A stretch of DNA of 64,000 nucleotides from Chloroflexota bacterium (GCA_965220075.1 OZ244806.1:2519925-2583924); one strand, 5' to 3'. Positions 25,185-35,912 are shown, counted from the first letter of the stretch. Program-made: numbers and translations. The notes: a model not told the origin generated them from the sequence alone.

Positions 25185-25421
25185 GTGAGCCGCTATCTCC
25201 TCCATGCCAACGGAGTCTCGGAGACAATCCGCGGCGCTCCGCACCCCGGTGTCGTCACGTTCCTTGCCGAGCACGAGGATCTTTGGCTGTCGTCGATCGT
25301 GATCGATGAGCTGGAATACGGCGTGCGGCTCTACCGAGGACTCGGCGTCTTCATGCTGCCTGCTCTAGAGAGCAGGGCGGCTGGGATTCAGCTGGTTCGG
25401 TCGAGGTCTTGCTCAGGTTGA
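25185..25421 (+). pseudogene. VapC (PIN-domain toxin) N-terminal relic
   Basis: LLHANGVSETIRGAPHPGVVTFLAEHEDLWLSSIVIDELEYGVRLYRGLG aligns with the VapC/FitB block LLDTNVVSELxRxxPxPxVxxWL....LxLSxITxxELxYGV. The catalytic Asp is replaced (HAN for DTN) and the C-terminal half is missing. Confidence 0.5.
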
Positions 25422-25486: not shown

Positions 25487-27163
25487 TTATACTGGCTTAT
25501 TACCGCCATATTCTCGCAGGTTAGTGAAAGGCTCTACCACAGGATGAGGCCTAGGAGGCAGCATTACAATAACCCTTTGTCGTGCTCGGGAAAGTGCCAC
25601 GTTTAGCAACCGGGACGTCTTCATGAAGGGCTCTCGCTCAGATCCGAAGTAGTCATCGGTCCGGAACACATGAATGACGGTGTCAGCCTCGCGCCCCTTT
25701 GTTTGGTGGTAGTTCATCAACTTCACCGTACCGCGCTCGGAGTAGTCCAAATCGATGAGGGCCTCGACGCGGCTGCGCTCGACGATCTCACACAACTGCC
25801 GCACGGCTTCCTCTGATACGGGAATTTCCCGAAGCGGCCGCAAGAGGCGCCTGAAGTGGTTAGCAGCTCTATGCCACGGACGATTGCCAGCCCTGATGCC
25901 GAGACCCTCCCATGACTCTATGGCGACCTCTGCCAATTCCCCCATCGTGCCATCTACAGCTGCAGCAAGGGCACCCTCGAGCTGCTGTAGCGATTCCTTC
26001 AAGAGACCTGGAAGACTAACCCTGCCTGCGAGCGCCCTAGCCATCTCGGGGACTCTGCGCTGCCTCGTGGCTGCGGTCAGAAACAGCCCAAGCGATTCGC
26101 GGAACTCTTCACTAGTCGTTATCCCAAGTGCAAACGCACATTGTGCTGCCATCGATGCCATCGCCTCTGCGTGAGCCTCTGGTATACCCACGAGAACGCA
26201 GTCGATACCCGCAGCATCTAGTTGCTCGGCCAACTCGGCTACCGCAGCATTGGAGTGGGCGAAGATACCGACATCACGGGAATGTTGTCTCCGCGCGTCC
26301 CTGATAATCTCACCAAGTAGGCCCGAATGGTCGTCAGGGCTCACATCGAAATGGATGACGAGGCGGCCACTAGTCAAAGCTTCAACGACCGCCTCATGGT
26401 TAAACAGGCGCTGGCGTATGGCCTCGGCAACAGCTGGAATTGCTCCTGATGGGTCGCGATGAGATCGCGGGGAGAGCTCAATCTCCTTGTCCACCCACTC
26501 CCGCAATTGGCGGAATCTCTCTGGCGAAACGCCCTCGATGAATGTATAGATCATTTGGTTTTCGTCACCCAGCAGGAGCAGCCTGCGCGACGTGATCGTC
26601 TGAAGAAGCTGCCACTGCTCTGCGCTTGTATCCTGGGCCTCGTCACAGATCACTAGACCCCAGCGGGTCGCAAGGAGCCGCCTTACACGCTCGCTACCAT
26701 TGACAATCGCCATCGCACCAGGAATTAAGTCAGCGTATCGGAGCTTGGTACGGTCCTGACCCAGCAGCTTGCTGCGCGCCTCCGACTGAAGTGAGGGCAG
26801 AGCCAGCCCGTAGCCCGCGTACCTTCCATACCCTTTCAACACCCGATAGGCGAGTCCATGGAATGTGAGAACTTCAACGCGATCCGCACAACCCACGAGT
26901 ACTCCCGGCGAGCGGCTCATGATCTGGGTTACCGCCGAGCGCGAAAATGTCAGGAACAGGACTCTCGGGGACGGATTGTCTTCTGAGGTCTCAAGAAAAG
27001 CGCGCGCAGCCCACAGCGCCGTCGTAGTCTTACCAGTTCCCGGTCCGCCCAGAACAAGCGTTCTGTCATTCGAGTGGAGGATCGCATTCACGACCTCGCG
27101 CTGCCTACAGTCAAGGTCATCAATTCGCATAGTCGTCCTAGCCGGATTAAGTACCGGCTGCAA
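25487..27163 (-). CDS. gajB: UvrD/Rep-like superfamily-1 helicase (GajB-like)
   Basis: 558 aa. Walker A LVLGGPGTGKTTT, motif II VICDEAQD, C-terminal VALSRARQRVIV. Overlaps the upstream OLD-like gene by 17 nt (operon). The region is lower GC than flanks. Confidence 0.8.
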   Translation of the reverse strand: MQPVLNPARTTMRIDDLDCRQREVVNAILHSNDRTLVLGGPGTGKTTTALWAARAFLETSEDNPSPRVLFLTFSRSAVTQIMSRSPGVLVGCADRVEVLTFHGLAYRVLKGYGRYAGYGLALPSLQSEARSKLLGQDRTKLRYADLIPGAMAIVNGSERVRRLLATRWGLVICDEAQDTSAEQWQLLQTITSRRLLLLGDENQMIYTFIEGVSPERFRQLREWVDKEIELSPRSHRDPSGAIPAVAEAIRQRLFNHEAVVEALTSGRLVIHFDVSPDDHSGLLGEIIRDARRQHSRDVGIFAHSNAAVAELAEQLDAAGIDCVLVGIPEAHAEAMASMAAQCAFALGITTSEEFRESLGLFLTAATRQRRVPEMARALAGRVSLPGLLKESLQQLEGALAAAVDGTMGELAEVAIESWEGLGIRAGNRPWHRAANHFRRLLRPLREIPVSEEAVRQLCEIVERSRVEALIDLDYSERGTVKLMNYHQTKGREADTVIHVFRTDDYFGSEREPFMKTSRLLNVALSRARQRVIVMLPPRPHPVVEPFTNLREYGGNKPV

Positions 27164-28880
27164 CCGCGACCGCGTCCTCTAGCAGCTGGACCGCCACGGC
27201 AGGAAGATTGTCTGACGGCAGTGAGTCAATGAACGGTCCATGCAATGAGTTGCTCTTTATGAAACGAATCGCCGTTTCAGTGATCTCCGATCTGGTGAGT
27301 ACGTCGAGGTTCCGAGGCTCAGCTAAGCCTGCGGCCGCTGCAACGTCCTTGAGCGCCTGAATTAGTATTCCTTCGGGCACGCCATTCACAATGGCCGCCT
27401 CAATGGCGAAGTCGTCTGGAAGCCGAACAACCGCATCTGCTGAATTGCCGTGGGTTTGCAAGTACTGCTGCACCTCTCGACGAGTGTCACCGTCGACCAC
27501 CGCGACTGCACGTAGACCAATGTCTCGGGCCGCATCCGCCAGCTTCAAGACGGCGGCATAGCCACCGGAGCCTCCCGATCCCGCGTTGACAATCGAGACT
27601 CCCCGTGTCGCGGGAAGCGCCAAGCCCTGCTCCGCAGACATCCGCAACGCGAGGTTGTGCAGTGCGGCAAAATCATTAGGTCCTTCCACAATGACTACTG
27701 AACGGTAGCTGAGAGCTGGAAGCAGATTGCGATGCCAGTGCTTGGCTGCGACATTCTCAGCCTTGGTCGTTGGCCGCCTGCCTTGGCGGACAAATCGCTC
27801 TCCATTCCCGTCTCTCCCTAGCCTGACGACCTCCTGGGGGTCGAATACCTCCGCGACAGCTGACACCCTAGTGGTCACCCACGCCTGTCCCGCCAACCTT
27901 CGGATGACGGCTGTCATGTGTGCAGATGATGCAGCATCTAGCCCGTCGCCGAGATCGTCGACGGCTAGGACTGGACCGGCGCCTGACGAGAGGGCCAGTG
28001 CCTCAGCTATGCGAAATAGCGAGGCGGCAGTTGACCCGCGCCGCCACGCCGGAAGGCTGCCTGCACCGTCACCAAGGTCAAGGGACGGACCAAGCGAGCG
28101 GAGAAGCCCACTTGGCGATCCATCTTCAGGCGCAAACTGGAAGAGTTGCGATACGTCTGTTGTCGAGAGTCCGAGTAGGTCCCTGAGCGGGGTGACTACA
28201 TCTTCAAGGGCCTCATTGATTTGGTCTGAACCGGTGAACTGCCCAGCGGCCTGAACGACTGCCTGCACGTACTGGGCAATCGCCGTCGCAAAGTCGTCGC
28301 CTCCAGCCCTGTCGATCACGCGCCGGAATGCGCCGCGAGGCCCAAGGTCGAGGATCCGTCCTTCACTCCAGCGCAGACGATTGAATCCCAACCTCTCAAC
28401 ATCCCGGCGTCTGATGTGGAGGAACGAATCGGAGGTTGGATCAGATTCCTTTGGATAGAAGATCCACTCTTCGCACCGCTCCTCCTCAAGAATCCACCTG
28501 GCCCAGTACTCCAGCCGCAGAACCCATTCAAATCGATCTTGGTCGACTTCTTCTATGTCCTCGATTTCTGGAAGGAGGCGGCCCTCACACCTGTCCCACA
28601 GTTCCAAATGGTCGAGGAAGTCCTGTTCCAGCTGCTCGCCAAGTCCACCGAGGGTGACCCCGATCCGAATGGGCCGGGTCGTGATTCTGTTATGGAAGTC
28701 AATTTCAGTGGTAGTCCCGGTGGCCCTGGCGTCGGAATCAAGTACGCGTGCCAGCGCTTCAATAAGGTCAGTCCTCTCCGCACCCGGTTCGCCCATGACC
28801 ACAACGTGACCTCTGGGCGCGACCCGGAAGTCGGAGAAGCCTCGAAATCGCCTTATGTGGAGTTCTTTAACATGCATCAA
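27147..28880 (-). CDS. gajA: OLD-family ABC-type ATPase with C-terminal TOPRIM nuclease domain (GajA-like; P-loop degenerate)
   Basis: 577 aa. N-terminus IRRFRGFSDFRVAPRGHVVVMGEPGAERTDLIEAL has the layout of OLD/GajA ATPases, but the Walker A reads GEPGAERT instead of GxxxxGK[ST]. The C-terminus has TOPRIM glutamate and DxD motifs (VVIVEGPNDFAALHNL, AVAVVDGDTRRE). Confidence 0.8.
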   Translation of the reverse strand: MMHVKELHIRRFRGFSDFRVAPRGHVVVMGEPGAERTDLIEALARVLDSDARATGTTTEIDFHNRITTRPIRIGVTLGGLGEQLEQDFLDHLELWDRCEGRLLPEIEDIEEVDQDRFEWVLRLEYWARWILEEERCEEWIFYPKESDPTSDSFLHIRRRDVERLGFNRLRWSEGRILDLGPRGAFRRVIDRAGGDDFATAIAQYVQAVVQAAGQFTGSDQINEALEDVVTPLRDLLGLSTTDVSQLFQFAPEDGSPSGLLRSLGPSLDLGDGAGSLPAWRRGSTAASLFRIAEALALSSGAGPVLAVDDLGDGLDAASSAHMTAVIRRLAGQAWVTTRVSAVAEVFDPQEVVRLGRDGNGERFVRQGRRPTTKAENVAAKHWHRNLLPALSYRSVVIVEGPNDFAALHNLALRMSAEQGLALPATRGVSIVNAGSGGSGGYAAVLKLADAARDIGLRAVAVVDGDTRREVQQYLQTHGNSADAVVRLPDDFAIEAAIVNGVPEGILIQALKDVAAAAGLAEPRNLDVLTRSEITETAIRFIKSNSLHGPFIDSLPSDNLPAVAVQLLEDAVAVAAGT

Positions 28881-29224: not shown

Positions 29225-29563
29225 CTAGACACAGCCGGTGGCGACGGCGAGGGCGCGGCAGACCTGGCGCATCTTGGTTGGGCTGAGGGTGCCGACGTAG
29301 CGGTGCAGCCGGCGTTGCTCGACGGTTTGCACGTGGTCGAGGTTGACGGCGGAGTCGTGCCGCAGGCCCTCGTCCGCGCCGACGACGACCTCGCTCGGCA
29401 GGCCGCGGATAGTGGACGTGATCGGCGCAACCATCGCTGTGGGCAGCAGCGGCAACACTTCCTGGCGCGTGAGGACGACGACCGGGCGCCGCTTGTCGGG
29501 CCGCTCGAAGCCGTAGTGCCAGATCGCGCCGCGGCGCGGCCCGGCGTCTAGTCCTCGGGCCAT
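29225..29563 (-). CDS. mazF: Type II toxin, PemK/MazF-family endoribonuclease
   Basis: 112 aa. GAIWHYGFERPDKRRPVVVLTRQEV...VAPITSTIRGLPSEVVV...SAVNLDHVQTVEQRRL matches MazF/PemK. Overlaps the upstream antitoxin gene by 16 nt. Confidence 0.85.
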   Translation of the reverse strand: MARGLDAGPRRGAIWHYGFERPDKRRPVVVLTRQEVLPLLPTAMVAPITSTIRGLPSEVVVGADEGLRHDSAVNLDHVQTVEQRRLHRYVGTLSPTKMRQVCRALAVATGCV

Positions 29564-29781
29564 ACACCTGCCTCAGCCCATCCCTCGAACTCGGCGTCAA
29601 GCCCGCCGGACGGGCGATAGCCCGCGCGGTAACGGAGGGCGATGCCCTCGGCGTCCTTGCGGGCCAGGTAGGCGGCCGCCGCCTCACGCAGGACGGCCGA
29701 GCGGTCCCGCTCCCGCACCGCCGGATGCGCGTCGAGCCGCGCGAGCAGCGCCTCGTCGAATGTCACCTGTATGGGCTTCAT
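29548..29781 (-). CDS. Ribbon-helix-helix antitoxin (MazE/CopG-like) paired with the MazF-like toxin
   Basis: 77 aa from ATG 29781. MKPIQVTFDEALLARLDAH... is an RHH N-terminus. The longer ORF in the track is rejected because it extends through an AT-rich promoter. Confidence 0.75.
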   Translation of the reverse strand: MKPIQVTFDEALLARLDAHPAVRERDRSAVLREAAAAYLARKDAEGIALRYRAGYRPSGGLDAEFEGWAEAGVWPED

Positions 29782-30283: not shown

Positions 30284-31536
30284 TGTGAATTGTCCAGACC
30301 GGGGACATGGTGAACACATCTAGGCGGACTCGCGCAGGTCGAGAGAGCCCAGGTGGTCGGTCATGAAGATGGCGTCCCAGCAGCCGTCGGTGGGCCTGGG
30401 CCGAAACGCGACCGGCTGGCCGCGCAACGCCTTGGGCAGGCGCAGTTGGCGGCCTTGGAAGGAGACCCAGCCGCCCTGCTGGACCTTGCGCACTTGGTCG
30501 GCGGGCTGGTAGGGCAGCGGCGGCAGGTGCGCCGGGTAGGGCCTGGGGCTGATCTGGTAGCGGCTGGCCGGTACGGCCAGACCCAGGCTCTCGTGCGGGC
30601 GCACGTGGTTGTACTGGTGCCGCCAGGCAGCAAAGGCAGCCTGCCAGGCGGCCAGATCGGGCTGTGGCGGCTGGCCCGCCAGTTCGCGCTTGAGGGTGCC
30701 GTGGAAGCGCTCGTCCTTGCCCAGCGTCTGCGGGTGGTAGGGCCGGCTGTGGCTGACCGCCACGCCCAGGCGCCGCAGCCAGACGGTCAGCGGGGTGTAG
30801 GGATGGGCCGGATGGTTGCCCCAGGGACTGCCGTTGTCGACCAGCCGGCGGTCGGGCAGCCCGTAGCGCTGGAAGGTGGCGATCAGGTGGGCGCGCACCG
30901 TGGCGGTGCGCTGATTGGGGCAGGCCACCAGCCCGAGCGCGTAGCGCGAATGGTCATCGAGGATGGTGAGGGGATGGCAGCGGCCGGGGCCGCAGGGCCA
31001 GCCGGCTTTGAAGTCCATCTGCCAGAGGGCGTTGGGGTAGGGCTGCTCGAACCGCTGGTAGGCGCGCGCCTGGCCCGCCCCCTGGGCGGGGTCCAGGGCC
31101 CCATGGCGACGCAGGATGGCGCTGATGGTGGAGACCGCCGGCAGCGGCTGGAGGCCCTGCCGGGCCAGCAAAACGCGCAGCTTGCGCGCGCCCCAGGCGG
31201 GATGCTGCGCACGCAAGGCCAGCACCGCCTGCTCCATCGCAGGGGCCGTCTGCCCCGGACTGTGGTGCGGTCGCCGCGCGCGCTCCGCCAGCCCCGCCGG
31301 GCCTTCCGCCGCATAGCGCTGCAACCACTTGTAGGCCGTGGCGGGCGCAATCCCGAAGCGCCGGCAGAGCGCCCGCCGGTTCGCCCCAGGCTGTCTCGCC
31401 AGCGCCACAAACTCGGCCCGTTGCTCCCTCATCGACCGGTCCTCAAACGGCACGTCATCAGGCCCCCGTCCTCTGCGAATGTGTTCACTATGTCCCCGAA
31501 CATGTGTTCATGATGTCCCCGGTCTGCACAGAATCA
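30284..31536 (-). mobile_element. IS481-family insertion sequence (about 1.25 kb) with terminal inverted repeats
   Basis: IR-L 30284-30319 TGTGAATTGTCCAGACCGGGGACATGGTGAACACAT. IR-R 31502-31536 reverse complement TGATTCTGTGCAGACCGGGGACATCATGAACACAT (23/25 identical in the core). Encloses a single DDE integrase-core transposase. Confidence 0.8.
30320..31453 (-). CDS. IS481-family transposase (rve/integrase core domain, DDE)
   Basis: 377 aa. N-terminal HTH (GIAPATAYKWLQRY) and integrase core with HSRPYHPQTLGKDERFHGTLKRE (the third-carboxylate region typical of IS481/IS3-type rve domains). Confidence 0.9.
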   Translation of the reverse strand: MPFEDRSMREQRAEFVALARQPGANRRALCRRFGIAPATAYKWLQRYAAEGPAGLAERARRPHHSPGQTAPAMEQAVLALRAQHPAWGARKLRVLLARQGLQPLPAVSTISAILRRHGALDPAQGAGQARAYQRFEQPYPNALWQMDFKAGWPCGPGRCHPLTILDDHSRYALGLVACPNQRTATVRAHLIATFQRYGLPDRRLVDNGSPWGNHPAHPYTPLTVWLRRLGVAVSHSRPYHPQTLGKDERFHGTLKRELAGQPPQPDLAAWQAAFAAWRHQYNHVRPHESLGLAVPASRYQISPRPYPAHLPPLPYQPADQVRKVQQGGWVSFQGRQLRLPKALRGQPVAFRPRPTDGCWDAIFMTDHLGSLDLRESA

Positions 31537-31626: not shown

Positions 31627-32091
31627 ATGGATAACAACTTCCAAAGGAAAGGCTCAATCTCAAACGCTCATATTGGGCATGACTTTGAAGATCATGCACA
31701 GGAACACCTTCGCAGTTGCGGCATCTCACTTAGAAAGAACTATTCTGTTAAAATTGGAGTTTCTAAAGGCAACGATAAAGAACGCCATTTTGATCTCGGA
31801 TCAGATATCCCGCCAGTACTATTCGAGTGTAAATCTCACACATGGACAGAAAGCGGAAATACTCCAAGCGCTAAGATTACTGTTTGGAATGGGGCCATGT
31901 ATTTCTTCCATATTGCGCCGCCTGAATATCGCAAAATCCTGTTCGTGCTAAGGGATTATTCCGCTAAAAAGAGGGGAACTCTCGCGCAATACTACGTCAG
32001 AAACTATATCCATCTGATACCTGATGATATCGAGATTTGGGAGTTTGACGTCGCCAGAGGCGTAGAGATCCTGCGTGATACGCTGACCTGA
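31627..32091 (+). CDS. hypothetical small protein with PD-(D/E)xK nuclease-like motif, AT-rich (foreign)
   Basis: 154 aa in a roughly 42% GC segment directly after the IS. FDLGSD...VLFECKSH gives a D...E-x-K signature. No other recognisable domain. Confidence 0.5.
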   Translation: MDNNFQRKGSISNAHIGHDFEDHAQEHLRSCGISLRKNYSVKIGVSKGNDKERHFDLGSDIPPVLFECKSHTWTESGNTPSAKITVWNGAMYFFHIAPPEYRKILFVLRDYSAKKRGTLAQYYVRNYIHLIPDDIEIWEFDVARGVEILRDTLT

Positions 32092-34327: not shown

Positions 34328-35497
34328 CTAGCCGGGATAGTCCCCCAGGGCGTCCGCGGCGGCCTCGATGTCCGACGCGTCGTTGAAGGCGTGGAAGCAA
34401 AAGCGCACGGCCGTGTAGCCGTCCGCGGCCCGGCACAGAATGCGGTGGGCCTTGAGGCAGTGGGCGGCCAGCGGGGTCCCGGAGACGCCCTCCAAGCCGA
34501 CTGTGAAGATTCCGGAACGCACGGCGCCTTGCTCGGGCGTGTTGATGCGGGCGCCGGGAACGTCGCTGAAGACGCGGCGGGCATCGGCCGCGAGCGCCGC
34601 GCTGCGCTGCTGGATGGCTTCCAGGCCCAAGTCGTTCAGCAGTCGAATCGAGGCGCGCCAGGCGGCGTAGAGCGCGTAGGGACGAGCGCCAAACTCGTAG
34701 CGCTCGGCGGTCGGGTGCAGACGGAAACGGCCCGGCGGGAAAGCGGAATCGGCCGCCGCGCCGACGCCGCTGCCCCAGGGATGCAGGCGTGCCTGGGCAT
34801 CGCGCCGGACGTACATGGCGCCCACGCCGTACGGCCCCATGCTCCACTTGTAGGCAGGGAAGGCCATGACGTCACAACCAAGCTGGCGCACGTCAGCGGG
34901 GCAGGCGCCGAAGGATTGCGCGGCATCCACCACGGTGACAACGCCGCGTTCGCGGGCCAGCGCGGAGACCCCGTCGACCGGCAGCACGATCCCGCGCTCC
35001 GTGGTGACGTGGCTCAGACAGATCGCGCGCGTGTTGGCCGTCATTGCTGCCTCAAGGTCGCGCAGGAAGGCGTGGTCGTCGCCGTCGGCTTCGATCGCGA
35101 CCAGCTCCAGACCGAGGCAATCCCGTAGCGTGAGCCAGGGGAGATAGCCGCTGGGGTGCTCCTCAGCGGTGAGAATGACGCGGTCGCCGCGTTGCAACTG
35201 AAGCGCAGCGGCCACGAACGAGATGGCCTCCGAGACGGCGCGGATCAGCGCGATCTCGTCCGGCTCCGCGCCGAGCAGCGCGGCGATCTCGCTGCGCAGG
35301 GCGCGCAGTTCGGCGTTGTAGACGTCAACCAGATCGGGGTTCGTGGTCGTCATGACCGCTTCGCGGTCGTAGAAGGCTTGCTGCAGGTCGAGCGTGGCTT
35401 GCGGGGTCGGCGCAACGCCGCCGGAGTTCAGGCAGCGGTAGTGGCGCAGGGCCGGGATCCCCTCGCGCAGTTCGGTGAAGGTGTTGGTGTCAACCAT
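34328..35497 (-). CDS. Class-V aminotransferase-fold PLP enzyme (cysteine desulfurase/isopenicillin-N-epimerase-like)
   Basis: From ATG 35497. VDAAQSFGACPADVRQLGCDVMAFPAYKWSMGPYGVGAMYVR contains the PLP-lysine region of the SufS/NifS/CsdA family. Confidence 0.85.
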   Translation of the reverse strand: MVDTNTFTELREGIPALRHYRCLNSGGVAPTPQATLDLQQAFYDREAVMTTTNPDLVDVYNAELRALRSEIAALLGAEPDEIALIRAVSEAISFVAAALQLQRGDRVILTAEEHPSGYLPWLTLRDCLGLELVAIEADGDDHAFLRDLEAAMTANTRAICLSHVTTERGIVLPVDGVSALARERGVVTVVDAAQSFGACPADVRQLGCDVMAFPAYKWSMGPYGVGAMYVRRDAQARLHPWGSGVGAAADSAFPPGRFRLHPTAERYEFGARPYALYAAWRASIRLLNDLGLEAIQQRSAALAADARRVFSDVPGARINTPEQGAVRSGIFTVGLEGVSGTPLAAHCLKAHRILCRAADGYTAVRFCFHAFNDASDIEAAADALGDYPG

Positions 35498-35912
35498 GGG
35501 TCGGGGGTACGTCAATCCAGCGGCGTGTGCCGGCCGCTTCAAGGGCGGCATCGATGACCTGCTGTATGCGGAGTCCGTCCATCAGGATAGGCGGTGCTTC
35601 GCGGTTCTCCCGAATGCAGTCCACAAACCCAAGCCTTATGCGCTCGCCGAAGTACGCAGGGGTGCGGGCGCGATCGGCGTCGTCCAGTGGCAGTCCCGGG
35701 TCGACAAATTCAGCAAAGCGCCCCAGCCGGTGGATCATGGCCCGCAGCACGCCGTCGGTCAAAATGCCGGCGCCACGCTCCCGATTCGGGCCGGCGATGG
35801 CTGCTACGCCGGCGTTGGGCACCGTATGGAGTCCTTGCGCGCTGTTGCAGGGCATTCGGCGAGCGCATGGCCGCAGATGGCGGCGGTCTAGACCTGAAAT
35901 CGTGTGCCGGAA

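Follow-up and report, generated by a model that had tools for sequence, protein, structure and literature searches.

A two-gene Gabija cassette from a Chloroflexota bacterium with an altered GajA nucleotide site

The window analysed here is a stretch of 64,000 nucleotides from a Chloroflexota bacterium, in which two adjacent open reading frames (ORFs) lie on the minus strand. The first-pass annotation had read them as a Gabija-like GajA/GajB pair, and both ORFs were found with the positions and lengths it claimed:

27147..28880, minus strand: gajA-like gene (longest ORF 577 aa), in which an ABC-type ATPase-like domain at the N-terminus is followed by a TOPRIM nuclease at the C-terminus
25487..27163, minus strand: gajB-like gene for a UvrD-type SF1 helicase/NTPase (longest ORF 558 aa), directly downstream of gajA and on the same strand

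Since family members begin with MxIKEL, the likely start codon of gajA is the ATG at 28877, one codon into its TTG ORF. The longest gajB ORF also begins with TTG, and homology supports a start at the ATG at 27130 (residue M12 in the window), which would give a protein of 547 aa; the relatives' gajB starts at the same position. Thus, the 17-nt overlap of the two genes reported earlier is an artefact of taking the longest ORF, and the start at 27130 leaves a spacer of 16 nt.

Described Gabija systems consist of a 4:4 GajA:GajB supramolecular complex, with NTP-inhibited DNA nicking or cleavage and protection against phages. The cassette is a genuine two-gene Gabija, that is, a Class 2 OLD nuclease with a UvrD-like GajB. 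The HMM models of PADLOC-DB, on whose E-values these calls rest, match both GajA (PDLC00086, 2.4e-30; PDLC04168, 7.7e-22 over residues 1-514) and GajB (PDLC00104, 6e-52), the best PADLOC models for the helicase being those of GajB. A search of the PDB with the GajA family profile found the GajA of Bacillus cereus VD045 (BcGajA) as the best match (4e-8), and an AF2 model of the 577-aa protein (pLDDT 82) retrieved with Foldseek the GajA structures 8u7i, 8x5i and 8sm3 at the top (E from 1e-17 to 1e-15). An ABC-type ATPase fold and a TOPRIM domain are both present in this single protein of ~580 aa, and a GajB homologue lies directly downstream of GajA in ~38 of ~40 complete related loci. The proposed identity is therefore borne out by PADLOC, the PDB profile, Foldseek and the conserved pairing. 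Support from general profiles is partial: in Pfam, OLD-like_TOPRIM falls just under its cut-off (22.3 against 23.2 bits), and the search of GajA gave no AAA_15 or AAA_21 match.

Other OLD-type assignments were considered and rejected. PtuA has no TOPRIM domain, and the PtuA of Septu pairs with the HNH nuclease PtuB; in the window, matches to PtuA are weak and N-terminal (E 0.007-0.013), and the neighbours are gajB, a MazF/RHH pair and an insertion sequence (IS), with no pairing with a PtuB HNH nuclease, or with a reverse transcriptase and ncRNA, as a Septu or retron-associated OLD would have. Class 1 OLD proteins, such as P2 Old and Thermus scotoductus OLD (6P74), share the ABC ATPase and TOPRIM fold (Foldseek E = 2.7e-15). 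Nevertheless, they are encoded by stand-alone genes and have an active ATPase (PMC10568477), whereas the helicase partner of this GajA is conserved and its site is non-canonical, with the catalytic residues replaced. The feature that divides Class 2 from Class 1 (PMC10568477), a gajB immediately downstream, is found here and also in the canonical Gabija relative P0214.

The catalytic motifs of the helicase and of the TOPRIM nuclease are intact, as had been noted:

27026..27049, minus strand: GGPGTGKT, the canonical Walker A (motif I) of GajB
26630..26653, minus strand: VICDEAQD, the Walker B (motif II) of GajB, of the canonical DExQD type
27672..27695, minus strand: TOPRIM catalytic Glu motif VIVEGPND (E399, equivalent to BcGajA E379), aligned to LLIEGPSE of BcGajA
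27486..27500, minus strand: TOPRIM DxD motif VVDGD (D463, D465), intact

GajB is unblemished. Motifs III (LLLGDENQMIY) and VI (VALSRARQRV) of SF1 helicases are also present, Pfam UvrD-helicase matches at 7e-27, and GajB keeps the consensus at all 36 columns with a conservation of 95% or more. A housekeeping UvrD, PcrA, Rep or HelD was rejected, as the NCBIfam equivalog models score 18-60 bits against cut-offs of 419-1144; the best-scoring UvrD/PcrA/Rep model reaches 60 bits against its cut-off of 965, which places the helicase outside the housekeeping clade. In GajA, the TOPRIM catalytic residues are kept across the clade to which it belongs: E399 in 219 of 223 sequences, D463 in 221 of 222 and D465 in 220 of 222 (all at least 98%), with D403 in 222 of 222, in a check that took in the equivalents of BcGajA E379 and of the DxD motif.

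The cassette has a GC content of 0.58-0.60, against 0.65-0.70 in its flanks, and thus lies in the lower-GC patch described earlier. Its supposed position between toxin-antitoxin relics and an IS stands only in part. There is an IS481-type transposase in the neighbourhood, and a PIN fragment beyond gajB (E = 0.031) does look like a remnant, but the toxin-antitoxin pair beside gajA contains a full-length MazF/PemK gene (2.6e-19) with an RHH antitoxin. Elsewhere in the family, the locus L016 carries a deletion that fuses GajA to GajB, and the Desulforudis loci L007 and L009 have a truncated GajA and no GajB.

The nucleotide site of GajA departs from that of BcGajA at three motifs:

28770..28793, minus strand: Walker A / P-loop GEPGAERT (G30-E-P-G-A-E35-R36-T37), read from sequence
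27936..27971, minus strand: remodelled Walker B / D-loop VLAVDDLGDGLD, with D308-D309 in place of E288-E289 (EEPExxLH)
27867..27878, minus strand: H-loop equivalent VTTR, with R338 in place of the H-loop His (BcGajA H320, STHSP)

The family profile aligns R36 with K35 of BcGajA (GMNDIGKT), so that the unusual P-loop, already read correctly in the first-pass annotation, is an artefact of neither the start site nor the alignment. R36, D309 and R338 correspond to K35, E289 and H320 of BcGajA, the Walker B and H-loop residues having been mapped through alignment A1 against A2 (hhalign) and A2 against 8wy4. A search of 1.84 billion representatives, with no selection on the P-loop, returned 155 matches at E <= 1e-30, and the clade is distributed mainly in Chloroflexota and Actinomycetota, with some Bacillota. 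Across this clade, the change from Lys to Arg in Walker A is coupled to Glu to Asp in Walker B, where EEPExxLHP becomes DD[LF]G[DE]xLD, and to His to Arg in the H-loop. Position 36 is Arg in 200 of 205 cluster representatives (Lys in 4, His in 1); all 226 sequences have Asp at position 308, position 309 is Asp in 220 (Glu in 4, Asn in 2), and position 338 is Arg in 219 (His in 4). The order of these substitutions was taken from a neighbour-joining tree that carries no support values. The Arg/Asp/Arg (R/D/R) branch of Gabija is large and previously undescribed, and it is very probable that the cassette is a member of it.

Several features suggest that this site is alive. The codons for R36 in relatives are CGT, CGC, CGG, CGA and AGG, and five different Arg codons point to selection at the amino-acid level. 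The P-loop scaffold (G30, G35 and Ser or Thr at 37) is nearly invariant, and G282, the glycine of the ABC signature, does not vary. The occasional Lys, Glu or His at the three exchanged positions shows exchange among chemically similar residues, as expected of a live ligand site. Since the change from Lys to Arg is clade-wide, multi-codon and coupled, it is the mark of a Gabija lineage that is divergent and subject to purifying selection, rather than of decay in this genome. Walker A Lys to Arg mutants and degenerate ABC sites typically bind ATP without hydrolysing it. The GajA site is probably constrained and remodelled so as to bind nucleotide without hydrolysis, and we lean, by little more than even odds, towards its being a binding-only sensor across the clade.

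Comparison with known systems is consistent with such a reading. TAP1 and CFTR NBD1 have degenerate sites with other residues in place of the Walker B Glu and the H-loop His but with the P-loop scaffold retained; in heterodimeric ABC proteins, degenerate sites bind ATP stably, with a regulatory rather than a turnover role. However, these are transporter nucleotide-binding domains, whose dimers pair a degenerate site with a consensus one, whereas every protomer of GajA would hold a degenerate site, and here the Walker A Lys is changed too. Closer at hand are the canonical sister Gabija (P0214, P0226, P0249, P0269, P0274, P0281 and others), which share full-length homology with the clade (hhalign probability 100, E = 5e-67, 569 columns), the same TOPRIM motifs and, at least in P0214, a GajB-like gene directly downstream. 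In contrast to the clade, they keep GxNxxGK[ST], EEPExxLHP and [ST][ST]HS and are found by Pfam AAA_15/AAA_21. The Gabija of B. cereus VD045 (PDB 8SM3, 8U7I, 8X5I, 8WY4) has the same two-gene operon in the same order, a GajA of ~580 aa with an N-terminal ABC fold and a C-terminal TOPRIM with catalytic Glu and DxD, and a UvrD-like SF1 GajB with canonical Walker A and DExQD. Nevertheless, BcGajA is only ~12% identical to the GajA of the window, in which, as in the clade, K35 is replaced by Arg, E289 by Asp (EEPEISLH to DDLGDGLD) and H320 by Arg; the copy in the window has, in addition, lost a P-loop glycine and the C-terminal tail. The ATP site has been described as highly conserved among GajA homologues (Antine et al., PMC10781630), and the clade departs from this conservation. 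That a GajA can work with a non-canonical P-loop has a precedent in LsGajA of Ligilactobacillus salivarius, which reportedly lacks the residues equivalent to BcGajA N31, K35 and T36 and yet is inhibited by dNTPs in a protective system (PMC13304284). LsGajA, likened here by description and not by sequence, belongs to another lineage, and no coupled remodelling of Walker B and H-loop has been described for it. BcGajA K35A, for its part, retains cleavage and ATP inhibition in vitro (PMC8136825). The earlier statement that the altered P-loop should abolish nucleotide binding is therefore too strong for the change from Lys to Arg.

Two further changes set the gajA of the window apart from its relatives:

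28776..28778, minus strand: codon 35, GAG (Glu), one G to A transition away from the GGG of relatives
27131..27149, minus strand: premature TAA of gajA (27147-27149) and a 16-nt relic of the tail codons, seen by comparison with relatives

Of the two P-loop changes, that from Gly35 to Glu is, on the sequences compared, the only one private to this genome: in 205 other representatives, position 35 is Gly in 204 and Ser in 1. GEPGAERT is thus not one degenerate motif. Arg36 defines a clade and is constrained, and the two changes differ in their histories. The sole second observation of Glu35 comes from another public assembly, locus L053 of Logan ERR13602196, which is of the same strain and carries an identical cassette.

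The other private lesion was missed in the earlier reading. A nonsense codon (CAA to TAA) and a 1-nt deletion remove the conserved seven-residue C-terminal tail of GajA, QSGLVQL. In the closest relatives, GajA ends in AAGTQ[ST]GL[VI]QL*, and its stop codon overlaps the gajB start in CTATGA; in the window, translation across the junction gives T * S G * D D Y A N, and the 4-nt overlap of the ATGA type has given way to the 16-nt spacer, which destroys the stop/start coupling of the family. The deletion comes downstream of the premature stop and so leaves the present reading frame undisturbed. The residues G..QL of the tail are at least 90% conserved in alignment A1, and among 95 full-length subfamily members the tail is missing in two, the window and P0043, although it is not conserved in distant actinobacterial members of the clade. 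Within the relic, AGGA at 27136-27139, 5 nt upstream of the gajB ATG, is Shine-Dalgarno-like and a putative ribosome-binding site. The junction is identical in L053, and a third assembly, L052, has the same 16-nt spacing between the genes.

Taken together, the explanation we favour, with moderate confidence, is an R/D/R branch of Gabija with a binding-only GajA site, of which the window holds a copy with private gajA lesions. As in described Gabija, the TOPRIM nuclease of a GajA/GajB complex would be held off while nucleotide fills the GajA site. In the clade, NTP would be bound at this site, but not hydrolysed, by two arginines and by two aspartates that coordinate Mg; GajA would therefore be purely a sensor, and NTP hydrolysis would be left to GajB alone. 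In addition to this design, the copy in the window would carry Glu at the most constrained glycine of the P-loop, and its nonsense codon and deletion would take away the tail and the coupling to gajB. Its GajA may be attenuated, and we put at about even or slightly better the chance that, in this strain, the private lesions impair or change the way in which GajA senses or assembles. Work on BcGajA offers some support for this mechanism, as the protein showed no ATPase activity and was inhibited by NTP binding (PMC8136825), while GajB was found to be the NTP hydrolase (bioRxiv 10.1101/2023.05.02.539174). By contrast, Huo et al. measured ATPase activity in BcGajA and treated its six ABC motifs as a catalytic machine (PMC10822852); hydrolysis may thus matter in canonical Gabija, and the clade may work otherwise. 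A bolder version is more tentative and somewhat unlikely: that the clade is a distinct Gabija subtype, whose GajA gave up ATP hydrolysis or changed its ligand or threshold, with GajB as sole NTPase and the allele of the window desensitised or off. If true, the clade would be a natural separation-of-function experiment, in which nucleotide binding without hydrolysis by GajA is enough for Gabija immunity, and the tail-less Glu35 allele a natural variant of this sensor with its sensitivity lowered or its function switched off.

Alternatively, the cassette could be fully functional, with Glu35 and the short C-terminus tolerated or even adaptive; for example, the Glu carboxylate may fill part of the phosphate pocket and shift the NTP threshold, and AGGA may replace the lost coupling. 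This is possible, if rather doubtful. Apart from these changes, both ORFs are undamaged, and GajB has no departure at its conserved columns, so Glu35 and the loss of the tail could be tolerated. By its count of departures, the GajA of the window is not an outlier, with 4 at columns at least 95% conserved, a number reached or exceeded by 22 of 95 family members. AGGA stands before gajB, and the tail, not being kept in distant actinobacterial members, may be dispensable. On the other hand, no other representative has Glu at position 35, where Gly stands in 204 of 205, and the tail is present in 93 of the 95 full-length subfamily members. Results on BcGajA K35A fall on both sides: its behaviour in vitro (PMC8136825) agrees with tolerance, but K35A, like H320A, abolishes defence and weakens ATP inhibition of DNA binding (bioRxiv 10.1101/2023.05.02.539174), and thus the P-loop matters in cells. 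Improbable, in turn, is that the clade's ATPase-like domain binds no nucleotide at all, with Arg/Asp/Arg having a structural, dimerisation or DNA-binding role and sensing having moved to GajB. All three catalytic residues are replaced together, the domain escapes the Pfam ATPase models AAA_15 and AAA_21, and mutations in GajB, not GajA H320A, relieved NTP inhibition of the complex (Huo et al., PMC10822852). Nevertheless, without phosphate in the site it is difficult to account for the near invariance of G30, G35 and Ser/Thr37, the replacements conserve charge (Lys to Arg, Glu to Asp, His to Arg), reversions to Lys, Glu or His occur, and G282 does not vary.

Decay, named as an option at the outset, would in its strongest form make the cassette an early-stage pseudogene in which gajA was inactivated first, with no defence now and loss to come, as might befit a small mobile islet. 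Three private events in gajA (Glu35, the nonsense codon and the 1-nt deletion), the nearby IS481-type transposase and PIN remnant, and the clear decay of relatives (the L016 fusion; L007 and L009) all agree with it. Yet the remaining 576 and 547 codons have neither frameshift nor internal stop, GajB is at consensus in 36 of 36 conserved columns, and the total of GajA departures is ordinary, which leaves this outcome unlikely. Of the earlier description of a divergent or decaying variant, then, the former applies to the R/D/R clade; the latter draws some support from the truncated tail and is countered by the flawless GajB and the ordinary count in GajA. Finally, Glu35 and the tail lesion could be sequencing or assembly errors, given that the source appears to be metagenome-derived or long-read and that L052 (4x coverage) has many errors. 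Such an origin is highly improbable: the independent Logan assembly of ERR13602196 is identical over the whole cassette, Glu35 and junction included, L052 shares the 16-nt spacing, and Glu35 comes from a substitution rather than from a homopolymer indel.

The gene pair that the first-pass annotation read as a Gabija-like cassette is present as two minus-strand open reading frames (ORFs), which lie in a lower-GC patch (GC 0.58-0.60, versus 0.65-0.70 in the flanks), as had also been reported.

27147..28880, minus strand: gajA, OLD-type ATPase and TOPRIM protein, longest ORF 577 aa
25487..27163, minus strand: gajB, UvrD-like SF1 helicase, longest ORF 558 aa

In PADLOC-DB, GajA is matched by PDLC00086 (2.4e-30) and by PDLC04168 (7.7e-22, over residues 1-514), and GajB by PDLC00104 (6e-52). 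Profile searches with Pfam bear out the OLD/TOPRIM assignment only in part, as OLD-like_TOPRIM scores 22.3 bits, slightly under its cut-off of 23.2, and none of the Pfam ATPase models matches the window GajA. Pfam clearly identifies the second protein as a UvrD-type helicase, and this protein scores far under all the housekeeping UvrD, PcrA, Rep, and HelD cut-offs of NCBIfam, which, together with its GajB match, identifies it as a Gabija partner and not as a housekeeping helicase. In addition, an AlphaFold2 model of GajA, built from a 58-sequence family alignment (pLDDT 82, pTM 0.81), finds the Bacillus cereus GajA structures 8U7I, 8X5I, and 8SM3 as its top Foldseek matches (E 1e-17 to 1e-15), followed by the Class 1 OLD protein of Thermus scotoductus. 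A phmmer search of the PDB with the single GajA sequence returned no GajA match, and GajA was reached by the family profile only. With these matches, and with the pairing of both genes kept in relatives, the cassette is a genuine Gabija, like described systems in its architecture, its fold, its partner, and its nuclease residues; it is a new sequence variant rather than a new kind of system.

Judged by the family alignment, gajA probably starts at the ATG at 28877. Public calls of this gene (P0001 and P0121) begin at Met29 or Val27 and give proteins of 549 or 551 aa; these calls cut off a conserved N-terminal strand, MxIKELxIxxFRGF (window 28794-28880, minus strand). Because such short calls are combined with near-invisibility to Pfam ATPase models, annotation pipelines may under-call this group of proteins.

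The Walker A of GajA is G30-E-P-G-A-E35-R36-T37. This GEPGAERT motif had been read correctly, and it is the true Walker A equivalent rather than a start-site artefact, because the family profile aligns it to GMNDIGK35T of BcGajA, the B. cereus reference. A word-index search for the GajA family gave 147 matches with 47-100% identity, nearly all of 583 aa, and a search of 1.84 billion representatives gave 155 matches at E <= 1e-30. The latter does not select on the P-loop and is the basis of the conservation counts, which were made on 205 independent cluster representatives that span this loop. Position 36 is Arg in 200 of them, Lys in four, and His in one, while position 35 is Gly in 204 and Ser in the remaining one, so that Glu35 is restricted to the window genome. 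The R36 codons of relatives include CGT, CGC, CGG, and CGA, with AGG in the window; given this diversity, the residue has been maintained by selection and does not reflect recent shared ancestry. The E35 codon, GAG in the window versus GGG in relatives, differs by a single transition. Thr37 is a normal [ST] variant that is present in 17 other members. In effect, what had been described as a degenerate P-loop is half clade signature (Lys to Arg) and half private mutation (Gly to Glu), and a clade of P-loop variants exists for Arg36 but not for Glu35.

The P-loop Arg does not stand alone, the nucleotide site as a whole having been remodelled in a coordinated way. Those canonical relatives that are closest to the clade (P0214, P0226, P0247, P0249, P0269, P0273, P0274, and P0281; E 1e-60 to 1e-32) carry GxNxxGK[ST], hhhEEPExxLHP, and [ST][ST]HS, whereas the clade has GxxxxGR[ST], hhhhDD[LF]G[DE]xLD, and [ST]TR. 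The two are homologous over their full length (hhalign probability 100, E = 4.9e-67, 569 aligned columns). The numbering of H320 was obtained by comparing the canonical-sister profile with the PDB, where it aligns to BcGajA residues 183-450 and fixes Walker B as IYLI-E288-E289-PEISLH and the H-loop as ST-H320-SP.

Replacements at the nucleotide site of GajA (BcGajA residue, clade residue, and counts in the clade)
Walker A: K35, R36; Arg 200, Lys 4, His 1
Walker B: E289, D309; Asp 220, Glu 4, Asn 2
H-loop: H320, R338; Arg 219, His 4

The TOPRIM residues E399, D403, D463, and D465 are conserved in at least 98% of this R/D/R clade, and the nucleotide site itself is remodelled yet strongly constrained. 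A few members keep the Lys (P0139, P0145, P0165, and P0208), and a small sub-lineage within the clade (P0172 and P0174) combines a GRS Walker A with an H-loop His, P0174 having in addition a D-E Walker B. Thus, the three substitutions are not strictly locked together. A neighbor-joining tree, calculated without support values, places the Lys-bearing members in a basal grade, which suggests that the Walker B and H-loop changes may have preceded the change from Lys to Arg.

Clustered at 50% identity, the clade gives at least about 150 clusters, from three phyla. When one genome per species was scanned with three patterns, one of them the GRS motif, 51 related loci emerged in Chloroflexota (Dehalococcoidia, Tepidiformaceae), Bacillota (Desulforudis), and many Actinomycetota, the last at 30-42% identity. 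As its distant loci were selected for GRS, this set was left out of the judgement of motif conservation. Of about 40 complete loci, about 38 have a GajB homologue as the next gene downstream of gajA. The canonical sister P0214 is also followed immediately by a GajB-like gene, whose product is 33% identical to the window GajB (E = 1e-16); consequently, the R/D/R clade is nested within Gabija proper. Its loci do decay. For instance, in a Dehalococcoidia MAG (L016, 6001-8265), a deletion has fused gajA and gajB into a single 759-aa ORF that joins GajA ~1-402 to GajB ~127-553, eliminating the TOPRIM domain. In Desulforudis and a related Bacillota MAG (L007 and L009), GajA matches extend only to residue ~477 and there is no GajB; these loci seem to hold a degraded copy from this clade. 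In a further protein, P0157 (1259 aa), the first 506 residues resemble clade GajA (profile positions 75-581); this protein may be a natural fusion of GajA to another domain or a merged gene call.

Gabija is among the most common anti-phage systems, and the clade signature is of interest as it bears on whether hydrolysis by GajA matters. The role of the GajA ATPase site is disputed, with pure NTP sensing on one side (PMC8136825) and measured ATPase activity on the other (PMC10822852). Cheng et al. (2021) found BcGajA to lack ATPase activity and to be inhibited by all NTPs, dNTPs, and NDPs; in vitro, K35A altered neither cleavage nor its inhibition by ATP, and H320A partly relieved inhibition (PMC8136825). 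In later work by Cheng et al. (2023), both K35A and H320A abolished defence in vivo and weakened the ATP inhibition of DNA binding, GajB was the NTP-hydrolysing subunit, and the GajA:GajB stoichiometry mattered (bioRxiv 10.1101/2023.05.02.539174). By contrast, Huo et al. (2024) described six conserved ABC motifs, GajA ATPase activity, and a conserved catalytic machine, with H320A abolishing defence (PMC10822852). The structural study of Antine et al. considered the ATP site of GajA highly conserved among homologues (PMC10781630), and a 2026 study reported that LsGajA, from Ligilactobacillus salivarius, lacks N31, K35, and T36 and retains both dNTP inhibition and protection (PMC13304284). No description of the R/D/R lineage was found in the literature, of which our coverage is incomplete.

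From its residues, the nucleotide site of clade GajAs would be expected still to bind NTP, because it keeps the glycine scaffold, Ser/Thr37, both Mg-coordinating acids, and Gly282 of the signature, because every replacement preserves the charge of the residue replaced, and because the replacements occasionally revert. Hydrolysis, on the other hand, is probably lost: Lys-to-Arg Walker A mutants typically bind ATP without turning it over, as do degenerate ABC sites with Walker B Glu-to-Asp and H-loop substitutions. Clade GajA may thus be a pure NTP-occupancy sensor that gates the TOPRIM nuclease, with all NTP hydrolysis supplied by the intact GajB. A sensor-only GajA would agree with the model of Cheng et al. 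for BcGajA. All three hydrolysis residues are replaced in the clade, yet the P-loop scaffold, the TOPRIM nuclease, and GajB are preserved. The existence of such a natural lineage argues that hydrolysis by GajA is dispensable in at least the R/D/R branch, which offers a ready-made test system for the role of this site.

The window copy carries a second private lesion, which the first-pass annotation had not described and which came to light at the junction of the two genes. In relatives, gajA ends in ...AAGTQ[ST]GL[VI]QL before its stop codon, which the start of gajB overlaps by 4 nt (CTATGA, or GTGA/TTGA equivalents). Such an overlap of stop and start is a typical translational-coupling junction. 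The window reads GGT ACT TAA TCC GGC TAG GAC GAC TAT GCG, where CAA has become a TAA nonsense codon (27147-27149) and 1 nt has been deleted directly past it, with loss of the overlap. Consequently, the window GajA lacks seven C-terminal residues, whose G..QL core reaches at least 90% conservation across the subfamily; among 95 full-length members, this tail is missing only in the window and in P0043. The 17-nt overlap of the two genes first described is an artefact of taking the longest ORFs, because the gajB start of relatives aligns to Met12 of the long ORF (ATG at 27130), which public gene callers likewise choose, giving 547 aa. The actual arrangement is a 16-nt spacer, with AGGA five bases ahead of the gajB ATG as a putative ribosome-binding site.

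GajB shows no departures at 36 columns conserved at 95% or more, and all its helicase motifs are intact. GajA shows four departures at such columns (G35E, S37T, and two missing tail residues); as 95 family members have between 0 and 10 (median 1-2), and 22 of them have four or more, this number is ordinary. What stands out is their location, in a P-loop glycine that is Gly in 204 of 205 other representatives and Glu in none of them, and in a near-universal tail. Placed at the glycine that precedes the Arg, the Glu35 side chain would be expected to crowd or repel the beta-phosphate, and the lost tail and coupling may affect assembly or GajA:GajB stoichiometry. On balance, we lean slightly towards a functionally impaired window allele. 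The effects of the private mutations are nonetheless uncertain and of local interest only. The allele was observed a second time only in the Logan assembly ERR13602196 (L053), where the cassette is identical. Its 99.8% identity had suggested a second strain, which was rejected, since all nine differences fall in the first 83 nt, at the contig end. Thus, L053 offers no independent evolutionary evidence; it confirms the base calls at E35 and the junction, and is silent on persistence in the population.

The cassette sits within a small islet (~25.0-32.1 kb) that is bordered on one side by a 2-hydroxyacid dehydrogenase gene and on the other by a PhyH dioxygenase gene. Its other features are listed here, followed by one gene beyond it.

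25185-25421, plus strand: PIN-domain ORF, 78 aa (weak partial match, E = 0.031, profile positions 6-47 of 120)
29225-29563, minus strand: MazF/PemK-type toxin (PF02452, 2.6e-19, full-length)
~29548-29781, minus strand: ribbon-helix-helix antitoxin (RHH_1, 4e-7), upstream of the toxin gene
30320-31453, minus strand: IS481-type transposase (rve, rve_3, LZ_Tnp_IS481, HTH_32)
31627-32091, plus strand: low-GC orphan ORF, 154 aa, between the IS and the PhyH gene
34328-35551, minus strand, outside the islet: class-V aminotransferase/cysteine desulfurase (PADLOC SspA and DndA matches, ~1e-29)

The neighbouring toxin-antitoxin genes had been taken for relics. This probably holds for the PIN-domain ORF, a likely truncated VapC remnant that has LLHAN where LLDTN is usual at the N-terminus, but not for the MazF/RHH pair directly upstream of gajA, which is intact. 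The IS noted beside the cassette is the IS481-type transposase, which forms the boundary of the low-GC islet next to MazEF. A promoter scan found no sigma-70-like site, which carries no information for such a high-GC and probably non-proteobacterial genome. No wider defence island was found at 31 to 42 kb, the genes from 32 to 42 kb being metabolic. The enzyme at 34328-35551 is probably a housekeeping IscS/NifS-like protein, with no further Dnd or Ssp genes among the neighbours scanned. The orphan ORF at 31627-32091, which has no Pfam or PADLOC match, may be cargo of the islet.
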